Virus record (IMG/VR): IMGVR_UViG_3300031993_000007 | Length of the DNA stretch: 64,000 bases | Reading direction: 5' to 3' (one strand) | DNA from: a virus | Taxonomy: Duplodnaviria; Caudoviricetes | In this document: positions 14,163 to 63,434 of the stretch, piece by piece | How positions within the stretch are numbered: position 1 is the first letter of the stretch | How the letters are laid out: each line of letters begins with the position of its first letter | Made by a program: the position numbers and the translations under genes | The notes under the pieces: model-generated | Told to the model about the DNA's origin: nothing | The model's database searches: none | The model's input: only the letters and a program-made list of their open reading frames with translations

Positions 14163-14241
14163 ATTTTATACCTCCAGTATAATCCGTAAGCACCATTGCT
14201 TACGGATGTATGGTCATAATTTAATATAGGAGGTTTTTAAA

Positions 14242-14574
14242 TTATTCTACGCAATCTAAAGGTTCTCCCTCTCCTCTGGTAATGTCTTTCAAGACATGCC
14301 AACAATCCGGACTGTCAAAGTAAGCCACAAAGCCAGCCTTTTCATAAGCGCTCCAGCTCTCTCCACCGTATGCCGGAAGACAAGTCGGCTTGAAATGCTG
14401 AGGATACTTAAGATGTTTAGGCCCAAGACGCCTAAGCATAACCTGTCCGGCATCATTAAGATCATCCTTGGTTAGGAGATGCGCTCGCCTAAGCGGAACA
14501 TTCTTTCCTCGGCGTTTCCAGTAGTTTTGCTCCAGAGTGGCAAAGGACAATTCTTCAGTAGGTTCGTTAGTCAT
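14242..14574 (-). CDS. Hypothetical protein (paralog of 14567-14824)
   Basis: Shares DLN..G, FKP..L, GF and (V/I)LKD motifs with its neighbour. Confidence 0.7.
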   Translation of the reverse strand: MTNEPTEELSFATLEQNYWKRRGKNVPLRRAHLLTKDDLNDAGQVMLRRLGPKHLKYPQHFKPTCLPAYGGESWSAYEKAGFVAYFDSPDCWHVLKDITRGEGEPLDCVE

Positions 14575-18417: not shown

Positions 18418-19740
18418 ATGGATATAAAAGGTATTGATCGTTTCATTCGCAACGGCTTGAAGCGCAGTCATACAGTTACATTCTTCGGAAACCACGGTAT
18501 TGGCAAAACGTCGTATACCAAGTACAATGTCCGTGCTCTTGTGGCAGAAAAAGAAAATGTGCCTATTGAACGTGTTCATGTAATTACAAAGTGCGTCAGC
18601 ATCATGGATCCCGCTGACTTACTTGGTAACTTCCATGAATTCGGCGGACGTACGTATAACTGTCCTCCGAACTGGATTCCGGTTTCCAAGGCCTACGAGG
18701 ACGAAATGGAAGCTTTGTACAAGTCGTATGGAATGGAATACACCCGTTTGACAAACTATGATGACGTGTATATCTTGTTTCTTGACGAGTGTAAGCGTGG
18801 CAACCCCATCATTCAAGACTCTATCATGGAACTGATTCTCGGTCATACCATCTTCGGTATTGACCTGCACGAAAAGACGTATATCTTTGCGGCTGACAAC
18901 GACAATGCAAAGATCTATAACGGATCTAAACGTGACCCGGCCCAGATGAGCCGTTTGAAGAACTTTGACTTCATGCCGACTAACAAGGAATTCTTGGCTG
19001 ACTTTGATGCTCGTACCGAGCGCGGAGAGATCCACGAGGTCATTTCGGCCTTCCTTAAGAAGAATGAAGACTTCATCGTGCTCCCGACCAAGACTATCGA
19101 AGAGCTTACCATCCAGAATAAGAAAGGCCCGTCTCCTCGTGACTGGACTCAGCTTGGCGAATGCTTGCTGGAGTTCAAGAACAATGATGACGATATCGTT
19201 GCTAACATCAACGGTAGCACCGCCAACGAAATGTACCTTCAGCAGATTGCTCAGGCTTACATCGGATCGGGTTATTCCAACAAGTTCGCCCGTTGGTGTG
19301 CTAGTGAATTCGCTCAGCAGATCGATATCAACGACATTGTTGAAAACATGACCGACAAGCTGTTCAATATTCTGAGGGACGAGTTTGACAAGGATCCGAA
19401 GAGTGCAATTCCGTTCTGCGAAGAAGTGGTCAAGAATCTTGAAAAGCGCAGCAAGCTCACTGAAAAGATGGGCAAGAACATTCTGCGCTTCATGGAGGCT
19501 ATGCCCAATGCTGGAATCAGCAACTTCTTCCAGACTTGGAACAAGGCTAATCCCAAGCAGTTCACAATGTGGAAGCACACTCCTCGTCGTCATGATATCT
19601 GTATGCGCTCTACGGCTTCTACCAACGCCAAGCCCGGTGAAAAGTCGGCTTATGAATCTTGGCTGGAAAACTTCCTCCGTAGGTTCAAGCTCACTCCGGC
19701 AGATATGGCTAGCGATACCATTGACCTGTCTACGAGGTAA
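18418..19740 (+). CDS. MoxR-like AAA+ ATPase
   Basis: Walker A GNHGIGKT, D..DLLG, Walker B ILFLDE, DPAQMSR and PSPRDW. Confidence 0.85.
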   Translation: MDIKGIDRFIRNGLKRSHTVTFFGNHGIGKTSYTKYNVRALVAEKENVPIERVHVITKCVSIMDPADLLGNFHEFGGRTYNCPPNWIPVSKAYEDEMEALYKSYGMEYTRLTNYDDVYILFLDECKRGNPIIQDSIMELILGHTIFGIDLHEKTYIFAADNDNAKIYNGSKRDPAQMSRLKNFDFMPTNKEFLADFDARTERGEIHEVISAFLKKNEDFIVLPTKTIEELTIQNKKGPSPRDWTQLGECLLEFKNNDDDIVANINGSTANEMYLQQIAQAYIGSGYSNKFARWCASEFAQQIDINDIVENMTDKLFNILRDEFDKDPKSAIPFCEEVVKNLEKRSKLTEKMGKNILRFMEAMPNAGISNFFQTWNKANPKQFTMWKHTPRRHDICMRSTASTNAKPGEKSAYESWLENFLRRFKLTPADMASDTIDLSTR

Positions 19741-19742
19741 CT

Positions 19743-21086
19743 ATGGCTGAAGTTCTGAAGAGTAACTTTGAGGAAGCTCTCTGTTTGCTCTCCATCAACA
19801 GCCCTGCGTGTTTCAACTTAATCATCCGTATTATCACCACGGAAACTGATAAGGTTGAGACTATGGGTGTTAAGGTCTGGGATGGCCAAATCGAGCTCCA
19901 GTACAACCGGAAATTCATTGACAACCTTGAAAAGGCAGAAAGGAACTATGTCCTCATTCATGAGATGCTTCACATCTTGATGCATCACTGTACGTGGCGA
20001 CAGAGTTCTGATCTGCGTATGAAGTATATCGACAACGTAGCGATGGATCTAGAAATCAACTCCATGATCCATGAAGATAACTTCATTAAAATGCCTATCT
20101 TCAAGAATAACGAAGGGGCAAGAAAGAAAGGGGAACAGTGCGGTCTGCTGCCTAAGATGTTCGGCTACAGCGATGGTCTGTCTTACGAACAGTACAGAGC
20201 TTTGTTGACAAAGGACTTCCCTCAATCCGAGATAATGTTCATTGTCGAAGAAGATGGGGAATCCAGCAACAGCGACGGTAACGGTGGCCAGTCCAATAGT
20301 TCCGGTAGCAACGGAGAAGGTGACGGAGATTCAGATGGCTCTAACCAGAATGATTCTGGTTCTAGCATGGAAGGAAAGATGGTTATCGATCCGAACTGTC
20401 CGCTCGGTAAGATTACCTCTGGAAGAATTGCTAATGATCATGGCAAGGATTATAATGAAGATACGTATGCCGACGACTTCGTAAGAGGCGAAGTTGAACG
20501 CATCCAGCGTAACAATCTGTGGGGAAATACTCCGTCTGGAACGATCGAAAAGATCTTGAAGGCTCAGGAACAACCCTTGGATTGGGCTGGCTTGCTTCGC
20601 TTAGAAGCTGGTCACTTCATTAGCTTTGAAAAGGTGTATACCCGTCGTAGATGGGATAAGCACTTTGGAAAGCCCTTCCTTGGCTATACTATGAAAAGTG
20701 TAGAACCGGTTGCTGTCTATACTGACACCAGTGCTTCCGTTGGAAGTTCTGATTTAAGTAGATTCATTGTCGAGATTGGACGTATTGCTCACTTCACACA
20801 AGTGATGCTGTACAACTTCGATACTGAAATCAAGAATCCTGAAGAACCAGTGCTGTTCAGCCGTGAGGCTATCGAGTCTATTGAGTTCAAGGGACGTGGC
20901 GGTACAAGTTTTACACCTATCTTTGAGCATGTCAAAGAACACGAAATCCATCAAGTGGTCATCCTTACTGACGGTTTTGCCGAAGCAATATCTCAAGATG
21001 AAGTCGGTGATGCTTCAGTAATTTGGGTGATTACCAAGGGTGGAAGCCTAACAGGGAAACCTGGGGTAGTCGTGGAAATGCAATAA
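19743..21086 (+). CDS. HEXXH metallopeptidase-like domain plus VWA domain protein (DUF2201-type partner of MoxR)
   Basis: HEMLH, NVAMDLEIN, acidic G/S linker, MIDAS DTSAS, GRGGTSF and ILTDG. Confidence 0.85.
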   Translation: MAEVLKSNFEEALCLLSINSPACFNLIIRIITTETDKVETMGVKVWDGQIELQYNRKFIDNLEKAERNYVLIHEMLHILMHHCTWRQSSDLRMKYIDNVAMDLEINSMIHEDNFIKMPIFKNNEGARKKGEQCGLLPKMFGYSDGLSYEQYRALLTKDFPQSEIMFIVEEDGESSNSDGNGGQSNSSGSNGEGDGDSDGSNQNDSGSSMEGKMVIDPNCPLGKITSGRIANDHGKDYNEDTYADDFVRGEVERIQRNNLWGNTPSGTIEKILKAQEQPLDWAGLLRLEAGHFISFEKVYTRRRWDKHFGKPFLGYTMKSVEPVAVYTDTSASVGSSDLSRFIVEIGRIAHFTQVMLYNFDTEIKNPEEPVLFSREAIESIEFKGRGGTSFTPIFEHVKEHEIHQVVILTDGFAEAISQDEVGDASVIWVITKGGSLTGKPGVVVEMQ

Positions 21087-21091
21087 AATTT

Positions 21092-21119
21092 AGAGAGCCG
21101 CAAGGCTCTCTTATTTTTT
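21092..21119 (+). terminator. Intrinsic terminator
   Basis: AGAGAGCC-GCAA-GGCTCTCT followed by a T-tract. Confidence 0.85.
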
Positions 21120-21130
21120 AAGGAACATAG

Positions 21131-21206
21131 AAAAAAAAGACGCCGCACCATGTTGTGGAAAAAGTGTCTTGCCCAGGGAAAGAGGGGAGAACTTTGGTGC
21201 GGCGTC
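21131..21206 (-). ncRNA. Structured 3' element A (12-bp stem, 44-nt loop, U8 tail); candidate sRNA/terminator
   Basis: GACGCCGCACCA (21139-21150) and TGGTGCGGCGTC (21195-21206) form a perfect inverted repeat, with an A8 tract at 21131-21138. Confidence 0.5.
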
Positions 21207-21214
21207 AGATTGGG

Positions 21215-21556
21215 TTATGCGTCTCCGCTAGTAGTTGCTTGTTCCTTTTCACGCAGGTAAGTCGGAATCGAATAATCAATCCCGGATGCCTTTAAATCGC
21301 TTTGAATTGACGTGCAAGCCTCTTTGTATTTCTCCCATTCCCATTTAGAAGCTTTAGCCTTCTCTTCATTGTCTAGTGCTTTGAGAAGAAGGTTAACTTT
21401 CTTTGTGGGAAGGGCGGCGGCCAACTTGCGATTTTCACGTTTCATTCTCGGAAATTCTTCAGATCGATGGGTTAACCACGCCTGAAGAGCAACTCCGGCC
21501 TGAAAACCGAACCAAAGACCGGAAAGGATAAGCGACGCTTTTTCTTTTGAAGCCAT
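21215..21556 (-). CDS. Small protein with N-terminal hydrophobic segment
   Basis: CTGGAGG RBS and its own TATATTT promoter motif. Confidence 0.7.
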   Translation of the reverse strand: MASKEKASLILSGLWFGFQAGVALQAWLTHRSEEFPRMKRENRKLAAALPTKKVNLLLKALDNEEKAKASKWEWEKYKEACTSIQSDLKASGIDYSIPTYLREKEQATTSGDA

Positions 21557-21646
21557 ATTACTACCTCCAGATAGTTAAAGAGAAGCAGGATTACTTCTCT
21601 TCTATGGGTCATAATTAAATATAGCCCGTTCGCTATATTTTTTACG

Positions 21647-21752
21647 GAAAAAAAGAAAGGGGCATTCCTATTCCAGCTGGAGGATCCAGAATAGGAAATA
21701 AACACCTCAACCCTAGGTGCGCCCCGGTGGCCGCTAAAAGAGCCGTCGGCCA
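21647..21752 (-). ncRNA. Structured 3' element B (multi-branch, U-rich tail); candidate sRNA/terminator
   Basis: Closing stem GGGGCG/UGCCCC; inner 12-bp stem (21665-76 with 21686-97) that is fully paired only on the minus strand through G-U pairs; loop AUCCUCCAG. Confidence 0.5.
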
Positions 21753-21758
21753 GTTTTG

Positions 21759-22289
21759 TTAATTGTGGTTCGTATAGACGTGCTCCATCCAATTTTGGGT
21801 AAACTGCGGACACTTGCAAAGCTTTCTTTCGCTATCTCCGTTCCCGACATTTCCGGGTCGAGCATGAAGTCTAATCACATCTGCTTCATTGATACATTCG
21901 TGATTTCCGTACTTTACCATCCCATACATCCTAAGGACATTTCCGGGATCTCTCACTATGGTATAGGTTTTTCCAAATACGGAAAACAAGTAAGATTCCT
22001 GCTCTTCAGGATGTTCAGTCTTAAAAGTGCTACCAAACCTATTATCCGCTACGACTTTAAATCTGTCGCCTTGGTATAACACCGAAATTTGGTGATTTTT
22101 GATGAAGGCATTAGCGCTGCTTAGAAAAGTGTCGCCTGGGCCTTCTTTACACTTGAAATTATTTTTCGCCAGCCGAAACTGCGAAGGACTTTTAGGATTC
22201 ATGCTCATACAATGAGGTGTTAGCCGAATGGATCGGAGTTCCATACAAGCCATCCGCAAAAGATAGATGGAATTATCCAGAATCCCCAA
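21759..22289 (-). CDS. Hypothetical protein
   Basis: 176 aa ORF overlapping the upstream small gene; start uncertain. Confidence 0.55.
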   Translation of the reverse strand: MGILDNSIYLLRMACMELRSIRLTPHCMSMNPKSPSQFRLAKNNFKCKEGPGDTFLSSANAFIKNHQISVLYQGDRFKVVADNRFGSTFKTEHPEEQESYLFSVFGKTYTIVRDPGNVLRMYGMVKYGNHECINEADVIRLHARPGNVGNGDSERKLCKCPQFTQNWMEHVYTNHN

Positions 22290-22441
22290 TGCAATCCCAT
22301 TAGGTATACTATCACAAAGTATAAGAATAGCACTATTGCTAGAGTAAGAAACAAGTTTTTCGTAGTTTTCATATTATTATCCTGACAATAATCTATACGA
22401 CAAAGGTTGTTTACCAGAATTGCAAGTATCTTATCTTTCAT
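22220..22441 (-). CDS. Small membrane protein (2 predicted TM)
   Basis: Hydrophobic LFLTLAIVLFLYFVIVYL and FWIIPSIFCGWLVW; the true start may be the internal Met after a CAGGA RBS. Confidence 0.5.
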   Translation of the reverse strand: MKDKILAILVNNLCRIDYCQDNNMKTTKNLFLTLAIVLFLYFVIVYLMGLHWGFWIIPSIFCGWLVWNSDPFG

Positions 22442-22451
22442 GAGTTTTCCA

Positions 22452-22540
22452 TAAAAAATAACTGCGCCGGGATAGGAGGTGTGTTAAGTCTCCAATGTTG
22501 TGGTGAGGCTGTGTGGACCTCAAAACTTCCCAGCGCAGTT
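22452..22540 (-). ncRNA. Structured 3' element C (13-bp closing stem, two inner hairpins, U-tail); candidate sRNA/terminator
   Basis: 22460-22472 pairs with 22528-22540, with one G-U pair valid only on the minus strand; followed by AUUUUUU. Confidence 0.5.
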
Positions 22541-22573
22541 GAGGTAGATGGATCTCCTTTGTGTTAAATCCTC

Positions 22574-23062
22574 TTACTTCTTCTGCTCTTCTTCGGCTTC
22601 TGCTTCGGTCTCATCTTCATCTGCTCCAACCGGACGGACGGTATATTCAATACCAGCCATCAGAACGACACGAGAGCCGTCATTTGCAGGAGGACAAAGT
22701 TGCATGCGAGGAGCACCAATGAAGTTGCCCATAGACTCTTCATAGAATCTGTTAATATTCTTTTCAAGTTGAATCGTATTTTCACCTACGATGAACTTCA
22801 CACGGTTCAACAACTTAGGCTTCTTGACTTCGTCTGCTTCAACCGGACGGACGGTATACTCGACACCAGCCATCAGAACAACATGAGAGCCATCATTCGC
22901 AGGGGGACAAAGCTGCATATGCGGAGCGCCAACAAAGTTGCCCATAGACTCTTCATAGAATCTGTTGATATTCTTCTCAAGCTGAATCGTATTATCGCCT
23001 ACGATGAGCTTCACACGATTCAACAACTTAGGCTTCTTAAAATTCTTTTTATTGTTAGGCAT
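22574..23062 (-). CDS. Protein made of two near-identical 71-aa domains
   Basis: Start MPNNKK after an AAGGA RBS, with TATATTA upstream; internal duplication. Confidence 0.75.
   Translation of the reverse strand: MPNNKKNFKKPKLLNRVKLIVGDNTIQLEKNINRFYEESMGNFVGAPHMQLCPPANDGSHVVLMAGVEYTVRPVEADEVKKPKLLNRVKFIVGENTIQLEKNINRFYEESMGNFIGAPRMQLCPPANDGSRVVLMAGIEYTVRPVGADEDETEAEAEEEQKK
22613..23038 (-). repeat. 213-bp tandem duplication (2 copies) inside the CDS
   Basis: Units 22826-23038 and 22613-22825 both encode KKPKLLNRVK...EYTVRPV.ADE. Confidence 0.9.
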
Positions 23063-26462: not shown

Positions 26463-26688
26463 ACGGAGATGAGAAATGGATCAAAAATCGAAAAAAACTA
26501 ACAAACAACAACTTGACCAAGTAATAGAAGCCATCTATACTCGTGCAAAGAACACCCAAAACGCCCCTAAATTTGGGGTAATAGCTGATTTGCTGACCCA
26601 TCGTGCTAAGTGACAACATATTTAGCAATACTTTGTGGTCACACAGCCTTTGCTTATTCAGTATAGGTGAACTCAATAATGGACACAG

Positions 26689-27036
26689 TTGTTTGTAGAT
26701 TGTGTTTTATACTCCTCCTTCTTGGCACTACCGCAAGACTTCTACCTCAGTCTTGCGGTAGCTGCTTTTGGAAAAATTATGTCGTCCTATTCATATTTAA
26801 GTACACCTTTAATGCGAAAGAGCTGGGAACGTCTAGCTATGTTCAGAAAAGTTTCGATCGAAACTTTTATCACTAATTCTATAAAGGGAGCTAAAGCAGA
26901 TTTTCTTCCACCTTGGTTAAATGAAGATGGATCTCTAAGCGAAGTTGCTAAGATGTTTCAGCGGATTGCGGATAACGCCAAATTGAATACAAATATTCTG
27001 TCTTTAATCAAGGAATACAAAAAACTTCAAGCGTGA
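26689..27036 (+). CDS. Hypothetical protein
   Basis: 115 aa ORF after a late-type motif; start uncertain. Confidence 0.45.
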   Translation: MFVDCVLYSSFLALPQDFYLSLAVAAFGKIMSSYSYLSTPLMRKSWERLAMFRKVSIETFITNSIKGAKADFLPPWLNEDGSLSEVAKMFQRIADNAKLNTNILSLIKEYKKLQA

Positions 27037-62972: not shown

Positions 62973-63434
62973 CTAAAGCACGAATTTAGATTTCTCCAAA
63001 ACATACTTTAGCGTTCTTACAATAGTTCCAAGGTTTAATATATTAACAAAGATGAACATTATACGAGGATAGAAAGCAATTGCTCGCTTATTATGTAAAT
63101 AGACTCTTAAGGACGTCAATATACACTTGGTGCATAGACTGTAGTCACGATGATTTCGAGTCATACGGCTTCCTATATCACGATCGTATTGTTCCATTTG
63201 TTTGATAAATGGAACAGCACATCGTATAGGATCAGTTTTGACTGCTTCTATAACTTTCTTCATAGTATTCTTGTATAGCTCATGTTCTTGCTGTTCATCT
63301 AAATGGCCTGTAATTTTGAATAGTACAATGTTACTTTCTTCTTTGCTAAGGCCAAGAATTCCTGCAAAATCTTTTGTGGATGGTGTAATACTAAAAGCGG
63401 CTTCTAAGGCCTTTTCGATATCTTCGTTGTTCAT
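62973..63434 (-). CDS. Orphan family protein
   Basis: AVKTDPIRC; N-terminus similar to 35234-35770. Confidence 0.65.
   Translation of the reverse strand: MNNEDIEKALEAAFSITPSTKDFAGILGLSKEESNIVLFKITGHLDEQQEHELYKNTMKKVIEAVKTDPIRCAVPFIKQMEQYDRDIGSRMTRNHRDYSLCTKCILTSLRVYLHNKRAIAFYPRIMFIFVNILNLGTIVRTLKYVLEKSKFVL

Follow-up and report, generated by a model that had tools for sequence, protein, structure and literature searches.

Why should an island of small early phage genes carry three large structured RNA elements, and do these elements merely end transcription or do they regulate something? This question was raised by a stretch of 64,000 nucleotides (nt) of IMG/VR virus record IMGVR_UViG_3300031993_000007 (hereafter the window), where the elements, named A, B and C, lie on the minus strand. 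A previous reading of the letters alone (the sequence-only reading) had interpreted them as terminator-capped small RNAs (sRNAs) exposing sequences that resemble the anti-Shine-Dalgarno (anti-SD) tail of 16S rRNA. From a comparison of related phage sequences, we conclude that they probably have a regulatory role and form an undescribed RNA family, rather than being plain terminators. Along the minus strand, the island consists of an early-type promoter, gene 1, element C, a gene for 73 amino acids (aa), a 148-aa gene, element B, a second early-type promoter, a 113-aa gene, element A and a plain hairpin.

Folding confirmed the stems and inner hairpins of all three elements where they had been placed previously. 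Element A (21131-21206, minus strand, as for all parts of the elements below) lies at the predicted 3' end of the mRNA of the 113-aa gene. Its G+C-rich helix P1 of 12 base pairs (bp; 21195-21206 with 21139-21150) encloses 44 nt and is directly followed by U8 (21131-21138). The enclosed part contains an inner hairpin with the C-rich loop UCUUUCCCUG (21174-21183), which includes the conserved UCUCCCUG, and, on the 3' side, the motif CCACAACA (21151-21158), which is the same as that in the junction of C. Element B (21648-21725) is a three-way junction (21659-21725) with a U-rich tract, and a separate hairpin, P0 (21729-21751), which is absent in relative L088, lies upstream of it. The junction is composed of P1 (5 bp; 21721-21725 with 21659-21663), P2 (21715-21719 with 21703-21707; loop AGGGUUG) and P3 (12 bp; 21686-21697 with 21665-21676; apical loop AUCCUCCAG at 21677-21685), and had the same architecture in five independent folds. 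The U-rich tract after P1 (21638-21658) merges into CCGUAAAA, the upstream half of the next promoter, and is conserved in all lineages. Element C (22450-22551) begins with a single-stranded 5' flank of 11 nt, CCAUCUACCUC (22541-22551), which contains UACCUC. The body (22460-22540) consists of P1 (12-13 bp; 22528-22540 with 22460-22472), which encloses two hairpins, P2 (22517-22522 with 22504-22509; loop CCACACA), the junction CCACAACA (22496-22503) and P3 (22490-22493 with 22475-22478; loop ACUUAACACAC). It is followed by the U-rich tract AUUUUUUAUG (22450-22459), which includes U6 in the window and runs into the start of the 73-aa gene.

In the window, A and C were much more stable than expected (fold z-scores of -5.5 and -5.6, respectively), and B only slightly so (-2.0). 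Homologous sequences folded independently into the same architecture (z-scores: A, -5.3 to -7.6; B, -2.5 to -3.8; C, -6.9 to -7.3). The claim that other terminators are simple hairpins was also borne out. Both strands of the entire 86.7-kb record were surveyed for closing stems with a span of 45 nt or more that are followed by T5. Only A and C had such a stem with 12 bp or more; a third, marginal match had a stem of only 9 bp, and block shuffles gave 0-3 matches at this weaker 9-bp threshold. The other terminators are plain hairpins, including that of another unit with the same promoter class, and thus such large structures are not generally required by the polymerase.

The three elements were all found, at the same positions, in four further lineages from cattle-gut metagenomes, which comprise (1) L002, L009 and L073, (2) L005, (3) L006, L007 and L008, and (4) L063 and L088. 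These lineages are well separated. Fourfold-degenerate sites of the 148-aa gene are 23-47% identical between them, which is close to saturation, with the exception of the window and its nearest lineage (L002/L009; 63-65%), and the small genes flanking the 148-aa gene can barely be aligned across lineages. Over such distances the helices were maintained by compensatory changes. Manual helix tables revealed compensatory change in three of 12 columns of C P1, all five of C P2, three of four of C P3, three of four of B P2, ten of 12 of B P3 and nine of 11 of A P1. Despite the sequence differences in these nine columns, no lineage has a mismatch in A P1. For C, an unbiased MAFFT alignment was also used, in which 92.9% of the cells were paired (30-48% when the partners were slid), six pairs had changed on both sides (reached by one of 500 shuffles) and the covariation score was 0.321 versus 0.192 (reached by none of 500 shuffles). 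Covariation of B was taken from the manual helix tables alone, as MAFFT misregisters the arms of the P3 hairpin.

In contrast with the stems, the unpaired motifs were invariant or nearly so while neighboring silent sites are near saturation. In C, these are the flank CCAUCUACCUC, which was identical in six of six sequences of four lineages and unpaired in every independent fold, the P2 loop (U/C)CACACA and the junction CCACAACA; the P3 loop UUAACACAC is conserved in three lineages, and in L002 and L009 P3 is swapped for an unrelated hairpin whose loop, UUCUCCCU, resembles that of A. In B, the loops GGGUUG and CCUCCAG are conserved, and in A the loop UCUCCCUG was kept in all lineages. Some variation was seen elsewhere in A: a second hairpin replaces CACAACA in L088, and in a near-identical strain (run X4) three extra bases restore a 5-bp inner hairpin. 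Comparison of the lineages demonstrated purifying selection on the unpaired motifs. Stems that vary around fixed loops are the hallmark of functional RNAs in which unpaired segments make contacts, and a conserved, unpaired C-rich motif displayed by covarying helices is also what SD-targeting sRNAs possess. This is the reverse of conserved stems with drifting loops, the pattern that the sequence-only reading had named as telling against it.

Several features point to a minus-strand RNA as the functional molecule. Across relatives, the helices contained 16 G-U cells and only one A-C cell, and the covariance model of C scored 117 bits on the minus strand versus 22 bits on the antisense (plus) strand. 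The earlier proposal that the G-U pairs work on the minus strand only was thus supported by the relatives, but not by the window itself, where the folding energies of both strands are similar. The elements are not coding: the lineages differ by indels that are not multiples of three and have no open reading frame (ORF) in common.

One alternative is that A, B and C are only elaborate terminators or attenuators and 3' stabilizers that set relative expression within the island, with loop conservation being incidental (e.g., due to folding kinetics or DNA signals). Each element has a G+C-rich helix directly before a U tract, as intrinsic terminators do (12 bp and U8 in A, the 5-bp P1 in B, 12-13 bp and U6 in C), and all are located at gene ends. 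The overlap of the 3' part of B with the next promoter explains part of its conservation, and in the relatives, though not in the window, the stem of A has an A-tract before it, as bidirectional terminators do. However, in contrast with compact terminators, the helices enclose 44-70 nt with inner hairpins and invariant unpaired motifs, and a plain terminator would be expected to show the reverse of freely varying stems around loops fixed at saturated divergence. Plain hairpins suffice in other units that share the promoter class. Element C had previously been considered a unit-ending terminator. This view could not be maintained: in every lineage only 10-30 nt separate P1 from the next gene, too little to fit a promoter, and in L002, L009 and L088 the U tract is degenerate, this being the part of C that is conserved least. 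Thus, C is an intercistronic element inside an operon and at most a leaky terminator. The downstream genes (in L006 and L088, directly the conserved 148-aa gene) need read-through. On balance, we consider it unlikely that termination and stabilization are the whole function.

The phage is an uncultured, AR9-like jumbo phage of the cattle gut/rumen. The completeness of the 86.7-kb record was estimated at 33%, which implies a jumbo phage of ~260 kb, and contigs of 254-259 kb in a protein collection bear the same genes. Its tail sheath is ~32% identical to the sheaths of phiR1-37, AR9/PBS1 and Staphylococcus jumbo phages, and the DNA runs containing the region are bovine gut metagenomes. The host is likely to be Fibrobacter, a fiber-degrading rumen genus, for two reasons. 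First, a MoxR ATPase and VWA/metallopeptidase gene pair (18418-21086, plus strand) showed 50-54% identity to a chromosomal Fibrobacter gene pair, which suggests that it was acquired from the host. Second, the ribosome-binding sites (RBSs) of the whole record favor GAGGUA (12 of 35 versus a background of 12%; no GAGGUG). This preference fits the 3' tail of Fibrobacter 16S rRNA (L204), GGAUUACCUCCUUU, which has U where most bacteria carry C.

All three elements had been thought to expose anti-SD-like segments. For A and B this agreed with our results, as their loops are C-rich, unpaired and conserved. In C, the segment flagged at that time, ACACCUCCUA, is half paired, its CUCC being the 3' arm of P3, and the exposed invariant segment is instead the 5' flank, whose UACCUC is the core of the Fibrobacter-type 16S anti-SD tail. 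CCUCC by itself is not rare by chance, and the significance of these segments rests on their conservation.

The best evidence for a target came from B. The SD sequence of the 113-aa gene, CUGGAGG (21564-21570, minus strand), is the exact complement of the B apical loop, which also complements the SD sequence of another gene with an early promoter (14171-14177). Between the loop and the RBS of the 113-aa gene, 7 bp can form in three lineages and 5-6 bp in L088, which represents the fourth. When 20-nt bins of each locus were ranked, the duplex (approximately -12 kcal/mol) was at position 5-6 of 650-950 in the window, L002, L005 and L009, which places it among the best 1% of sites in these four sequences from three lineages. 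In L002, L005 and L009, only the antisense of the loop itself and a CUGGAGG inside element A outscored the RBS; in the window, where A lacks CUGGAGG, the higher bins were the antisense of the loop and unrelated antisense-strand sites. In L088, the loop is CUCCGA and the RBS is UCGGAG, such that the dinucleotide beside the CUCC/GGAG core has changed on both sides, which is suggestive of covariation between loop and RBS. In the three lineages in which the MoxR RBS, AGAGGUAGA, is visible, the flank of C can form 7-8 bp with it, and the flank also pairs with two other GAGGUAGA sites. This should be considered only a lead, because an SD-like core makes such matches fairly common.

Based on these observations, we favor a model, which could well hold though we would not yet call it probable, in which the elements are leaky terminators or 3' caps that enclose or adjoin hairpins and single strands acting on SD sequences. 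The closing helix abutting the U-rich tract would end or attenuate transcription and cap the upstream mRNA, whereas the hairpins and single strands inside or just before the helix would display conserved C-rich, anti-SD-like sequences (CUACCUC in the C flank, CCUCCAG in the B loop and UCUCCCUG in the A loop). The exposed segments would then pair with RBSs and limit translation, either in cis, on transcripts that read through the element, or in trans, by way of stable 3' fragments. The clearest example is B, whose loop matches the RBS of the early gene that follows. Within this model, RNA-RNA pairing at SD sites would be the function, and discrete RNAs of 75-110 nt may accumulate.

On the other hand, some observations weigh against this model. 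The number of independent lineages compared was four only. The duplex in L088 is weak (-7.8 kcal/mol; rank 36 of 712), and the B loop of other lineages would bind the L088 RBS better (-9.2). Complementarity to an RBS, which the sequence-only reading had proposed as one possibility, was seen for B, whereas neither the A loop nor the C motifs had a conserved target in the shared 6-9 kb or in the 86.7-kb record, and for a C-rich loop of any kind some 5-bp match to a purine-rich SD site is to be expected. In addition, the CA-rich motifs (CACACA, CCACAACA and UUAACACAC) are equally conserved, are not anti-SD-like and are not explained by an anti-SD model. One metatranscriptome run (6% of words) gave a single contig of 152 nt within the coding region of the 113-aa gene and was uninformative on A, B and C.

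The unexplained CA-rich motifs give some weight to the possibility, also raised by the sequence-only reading, that the elements are protein-binding platforms or decoys. In this case, CA-rich and CU-rich, G-poor strands would be presented on a rigid three-way junction, with the helices serving as scaffold and 3' cap, to an RNA-binding protein of the phage or the host, for example one of the KH or S1 type, a ribonuclease or a factor whose usual ligand is the 3' tail of 16S rRNA. It would account for three to four unpaired motifs per element being invariant at saturated silent sites, for the modular recurrence of motifs (CCACAACA in A and C; a UCUCCCU loop in A and in C P3 of L002/L009) and for the absence of any RNA target found for them. 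However, it leaves the complementarity between the B loop and the RBS unexplained, Pfam and PHROG searches revealed no RNA-binding domain in the neighboring genes and were otherwise empty for these proteins, and structural models of two of them were uninformative: the 85-aa protein related to gene 1 had a predicted local distance difference test (pLDDT) score of 66 in its AlphaFold model, and the 148-aa protein appeared to have a beta-rich core with no PDB match. A lead to VWD domains obtained from Atlas for the neighboring proteins was weak. Such a platform seems doubtful to us as the main function.

A cis-only device is still less probable. Under this hypothesis, the helix of C brings the stop codon of gene 1 near the next start codon, for coupling or insulation, B masks the RBS on read-through transcripts, and no free sRNA is formed. 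The spacing around C is suggestive, as only 0-2 nt separate the stop codon from the invariant flank in L002, L006 and L088 and the next start codon closely follows P1, and the RBS matching the B loop is on the same strand, ~105 nt downstream. Nevertheless, the stop-to-flank distance is not fixed (0-34 nt), B is separated from its putative cis target by a promoter, and in four of five sequences no gene follows A on the same strand. Finally, a DNA-level signal (protein-binding sites, cruciforms or plus-strand promoters) is extremely improbable, since, although inverted repeats exist in DNA as well and plus-strand folding energies are similar in the window, the excess of G-U over A-C cells, the strand preference of the C model, U tracts on the minus strand only and the lack of a promoter motif inside the elements all argue against it.

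Other roles were considered and rejected. A riboswitch-type three-way-junction aptamer did not agree with the replacement of C P3 in L002/L009 or the additional hairpin of A in L088. An attenuation switch in which the C flank pairs with the 5' arm of P2 was discarded, because the two segments are not complementary in L002 and L009. Pairing of B P2 with the loops or single strands of other elements (the A loop or the C flank) was not conserved.

We also searched for known families and further members. Rfam gave nothing at gathering score in the 64-kb window, and the best match for 21000-22700 had at most 21 bits (E at least 0.37), which is consistent with the previous expectation that no described family would match. 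Neither the region nor the 148-aa protein had a BLAST match among 50,697 phage records. Scans of IMG/VR, JGI metagenomes and GTDB genomes with C and B signatures recovered only known relatives (L014, L063 and L073); the other matches lacked the structure and were rejected as chance matches. Lookups of VWA homologues for more lineages yielded short contigs that end before the elements, or chromosomal Fibrobacter genes. Thus, within the collections scanned, only a handful of uncultured rumen phage genomes carry the family. The best non-self match of the C model in 100 kb was element A (12.5 bits, E 0.62). On the host side, the complement of the C flank had no exact match in two Fibrobacter genomes, where one-mismatch counts equaled those of the control, and the CA-rich motifs showed no notable complementarity or identity to Fibrobacter 16S rRNA. 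Across the available phage sequence, these two genomes and 16S rRNA, neither the A loop nor the CA-rich motifs had a conserved partner.

Antisense RNAs of phages and bacteria aimed at RBSs are already known as a general kind, and the elements may be compared with several of them. In Firmicutes, unpaired UCCC motifs in the loops of RsaE/RoxS, RNAIII and other Rsa RNAs bind SD sequences and block initiation (PMC2790875). Similar to these sRNAs, the most conserved parts of the phage elements are unpaired C-rich loops, the helices covary and the 3' end is terminator-like. However, the Firmicutes sRNAs are free-standing bacterial genes with their own promoters, whereas the phage elements, which are known from sequence alone, place their hairpins within the helix that closes a structure at an mRNA 3' end or between cistrons, and carry extra CA-rich motifs. 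Housing regulatory hairpins within the closing helix of a terminator is unusual. CpxQ, DapZ and SdhX are sRNAs that derive from 3' untranslated regions (UTRs) and share the terminator of the parent mRNA. Like them, the phage elements occupy an mRNA 3' end, show a conserved single strand (the putative seed) 5' of a folded body and terminator, and lack a promoter of their own; in contrast with them, there is no known chaperone context in the likely host. In the jumbo phages phiKZ and 201phi2-1, sRNAs have been reported, which are mostly 5'UTR-derived and arise from premature termination (PMC11512511). These are likewise small, structured, conserved among related giant phages and located beside regulatory elements, but belong to Pseudomonas phages and are unrelated in sequence to the elements described here. 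In the early region of T7, intercistronic RNase III sites are present, and in T4 the RegA and RegB proteins control early mRNAs. The resemblance lies in structures between early genes that shape mRNA ends and, under our model, in the post-transcriptional control of early-gene RBSs; however, RNase III sites of T7 are long, irregular duplexes without conserved loops, and RegA and RegB are proteins, whereas the effector proposed here is an RNA.

To our knowledge, RNA-based regulation in jumbo phages with their own RNA polymerases is little known, and we know of no case in Fibrobacter phages. In this respect, it is useful that one member of the family, B, has a specific and testable partner, the RBS of a neighboring early gene. 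Confirmation would mean that a terminator can hold regulatory hairpins within its closing helix, and that a phage times translation with mimics of the host anti-SD sequence. A more far-reaching idea, which we regard as quite improbable, is that the phage copies the anti-SD tail of its host (UACCUCC-like) into the 3' structures of its earliest mRNAs, whose accumulating ends would titrate or mask a class of RBSs and thereby serve as an RNA-only shut-off timer for early-gene or host translation, with the CA motifs recruiting a helper protein. RegA and RegB of T4 would be its functional counterpart.

With regard to the genes of the island, gene 1 (22574-23062, minus strand) is an early gene whose mRNA bears C on its 3' side. 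It is a tandem duplication of a gene of ~85 aa that is present as a single copy in all relatives. The 73-aa gene (22220-22441, minus strand) encodes a membrane protein, starts directly after C and is variable or absent in relatives. The 148-aa gene (21759-22208, minus strand) lacks an SD sequence, its mRNA ends in B, and its product is conserved, with 66-78% amino-acid identity across lineages. P0 overlaps the C-terminal codons of this gene in L002, L005 and L009 and is non-coding in the window. There, the gene stops prematurely (21729-21770, minus strand), by which the C-terminal YKIGRRHF of all relatives is lost, and the hairpin overlapping the lost codons is kept as non-coding RNA. The 113-aa gene (21215-21556, minus strand) is transcribed from an early-type promoter of its own into an mRNA that ends in A; the protein has a hydrophobic N-terminus and, as judged by eye, is likely to form a coiled coil.

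The promoter of the 113-aa gene, which is the second early-type promoter of the island, has the form CCGUAAAA-N-TATATTTAA, and its core TATATTTAA (21615-21623, minus strand) belongs to a motif present at four to five other sites of the record. The full motif is bipartite, CGTARA-N17-19-TATATTWAA, and is followed by a covarying hairpin in the 5'UTR. Such sites are located at 21615-21648 and 14190-14260 of the window and near 63042, 65129 and 73611 of the record (record coordinates, which are shifted by 11744). The early consensus of AR9 resembles these promoters (PMC5312081).

Downstream of A, a plain bidirectional terminator hairpin (21092-21111) is common to the A side and the convergent VWA gene. 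The sequence UUUUUUCUAUGUUCC (21112-21138, minus strand) follows A in nearly all lineages, with a variant in L005, and was also found after an unrelated simple terminator in L088 (3650-3700) and L200. An extra gene of ~150 aa with its own early-type promoter lies between A and the VWA gene in L088 (3721-4260, minus strand) and L200 (1456-1815). Outside the island, an ORF-poor stretch of 170 nt on the plus strand (26608-26775) follows a small ORF, has a fold z-score of -4.0 and ends in a 13-bp hairpin. L003 carries different genes at this position. The stretch shares short motifs with A, B and C, namely GGUCACACAGCC, CUCCUCCUUCUU and the loop UCUACCUCA.

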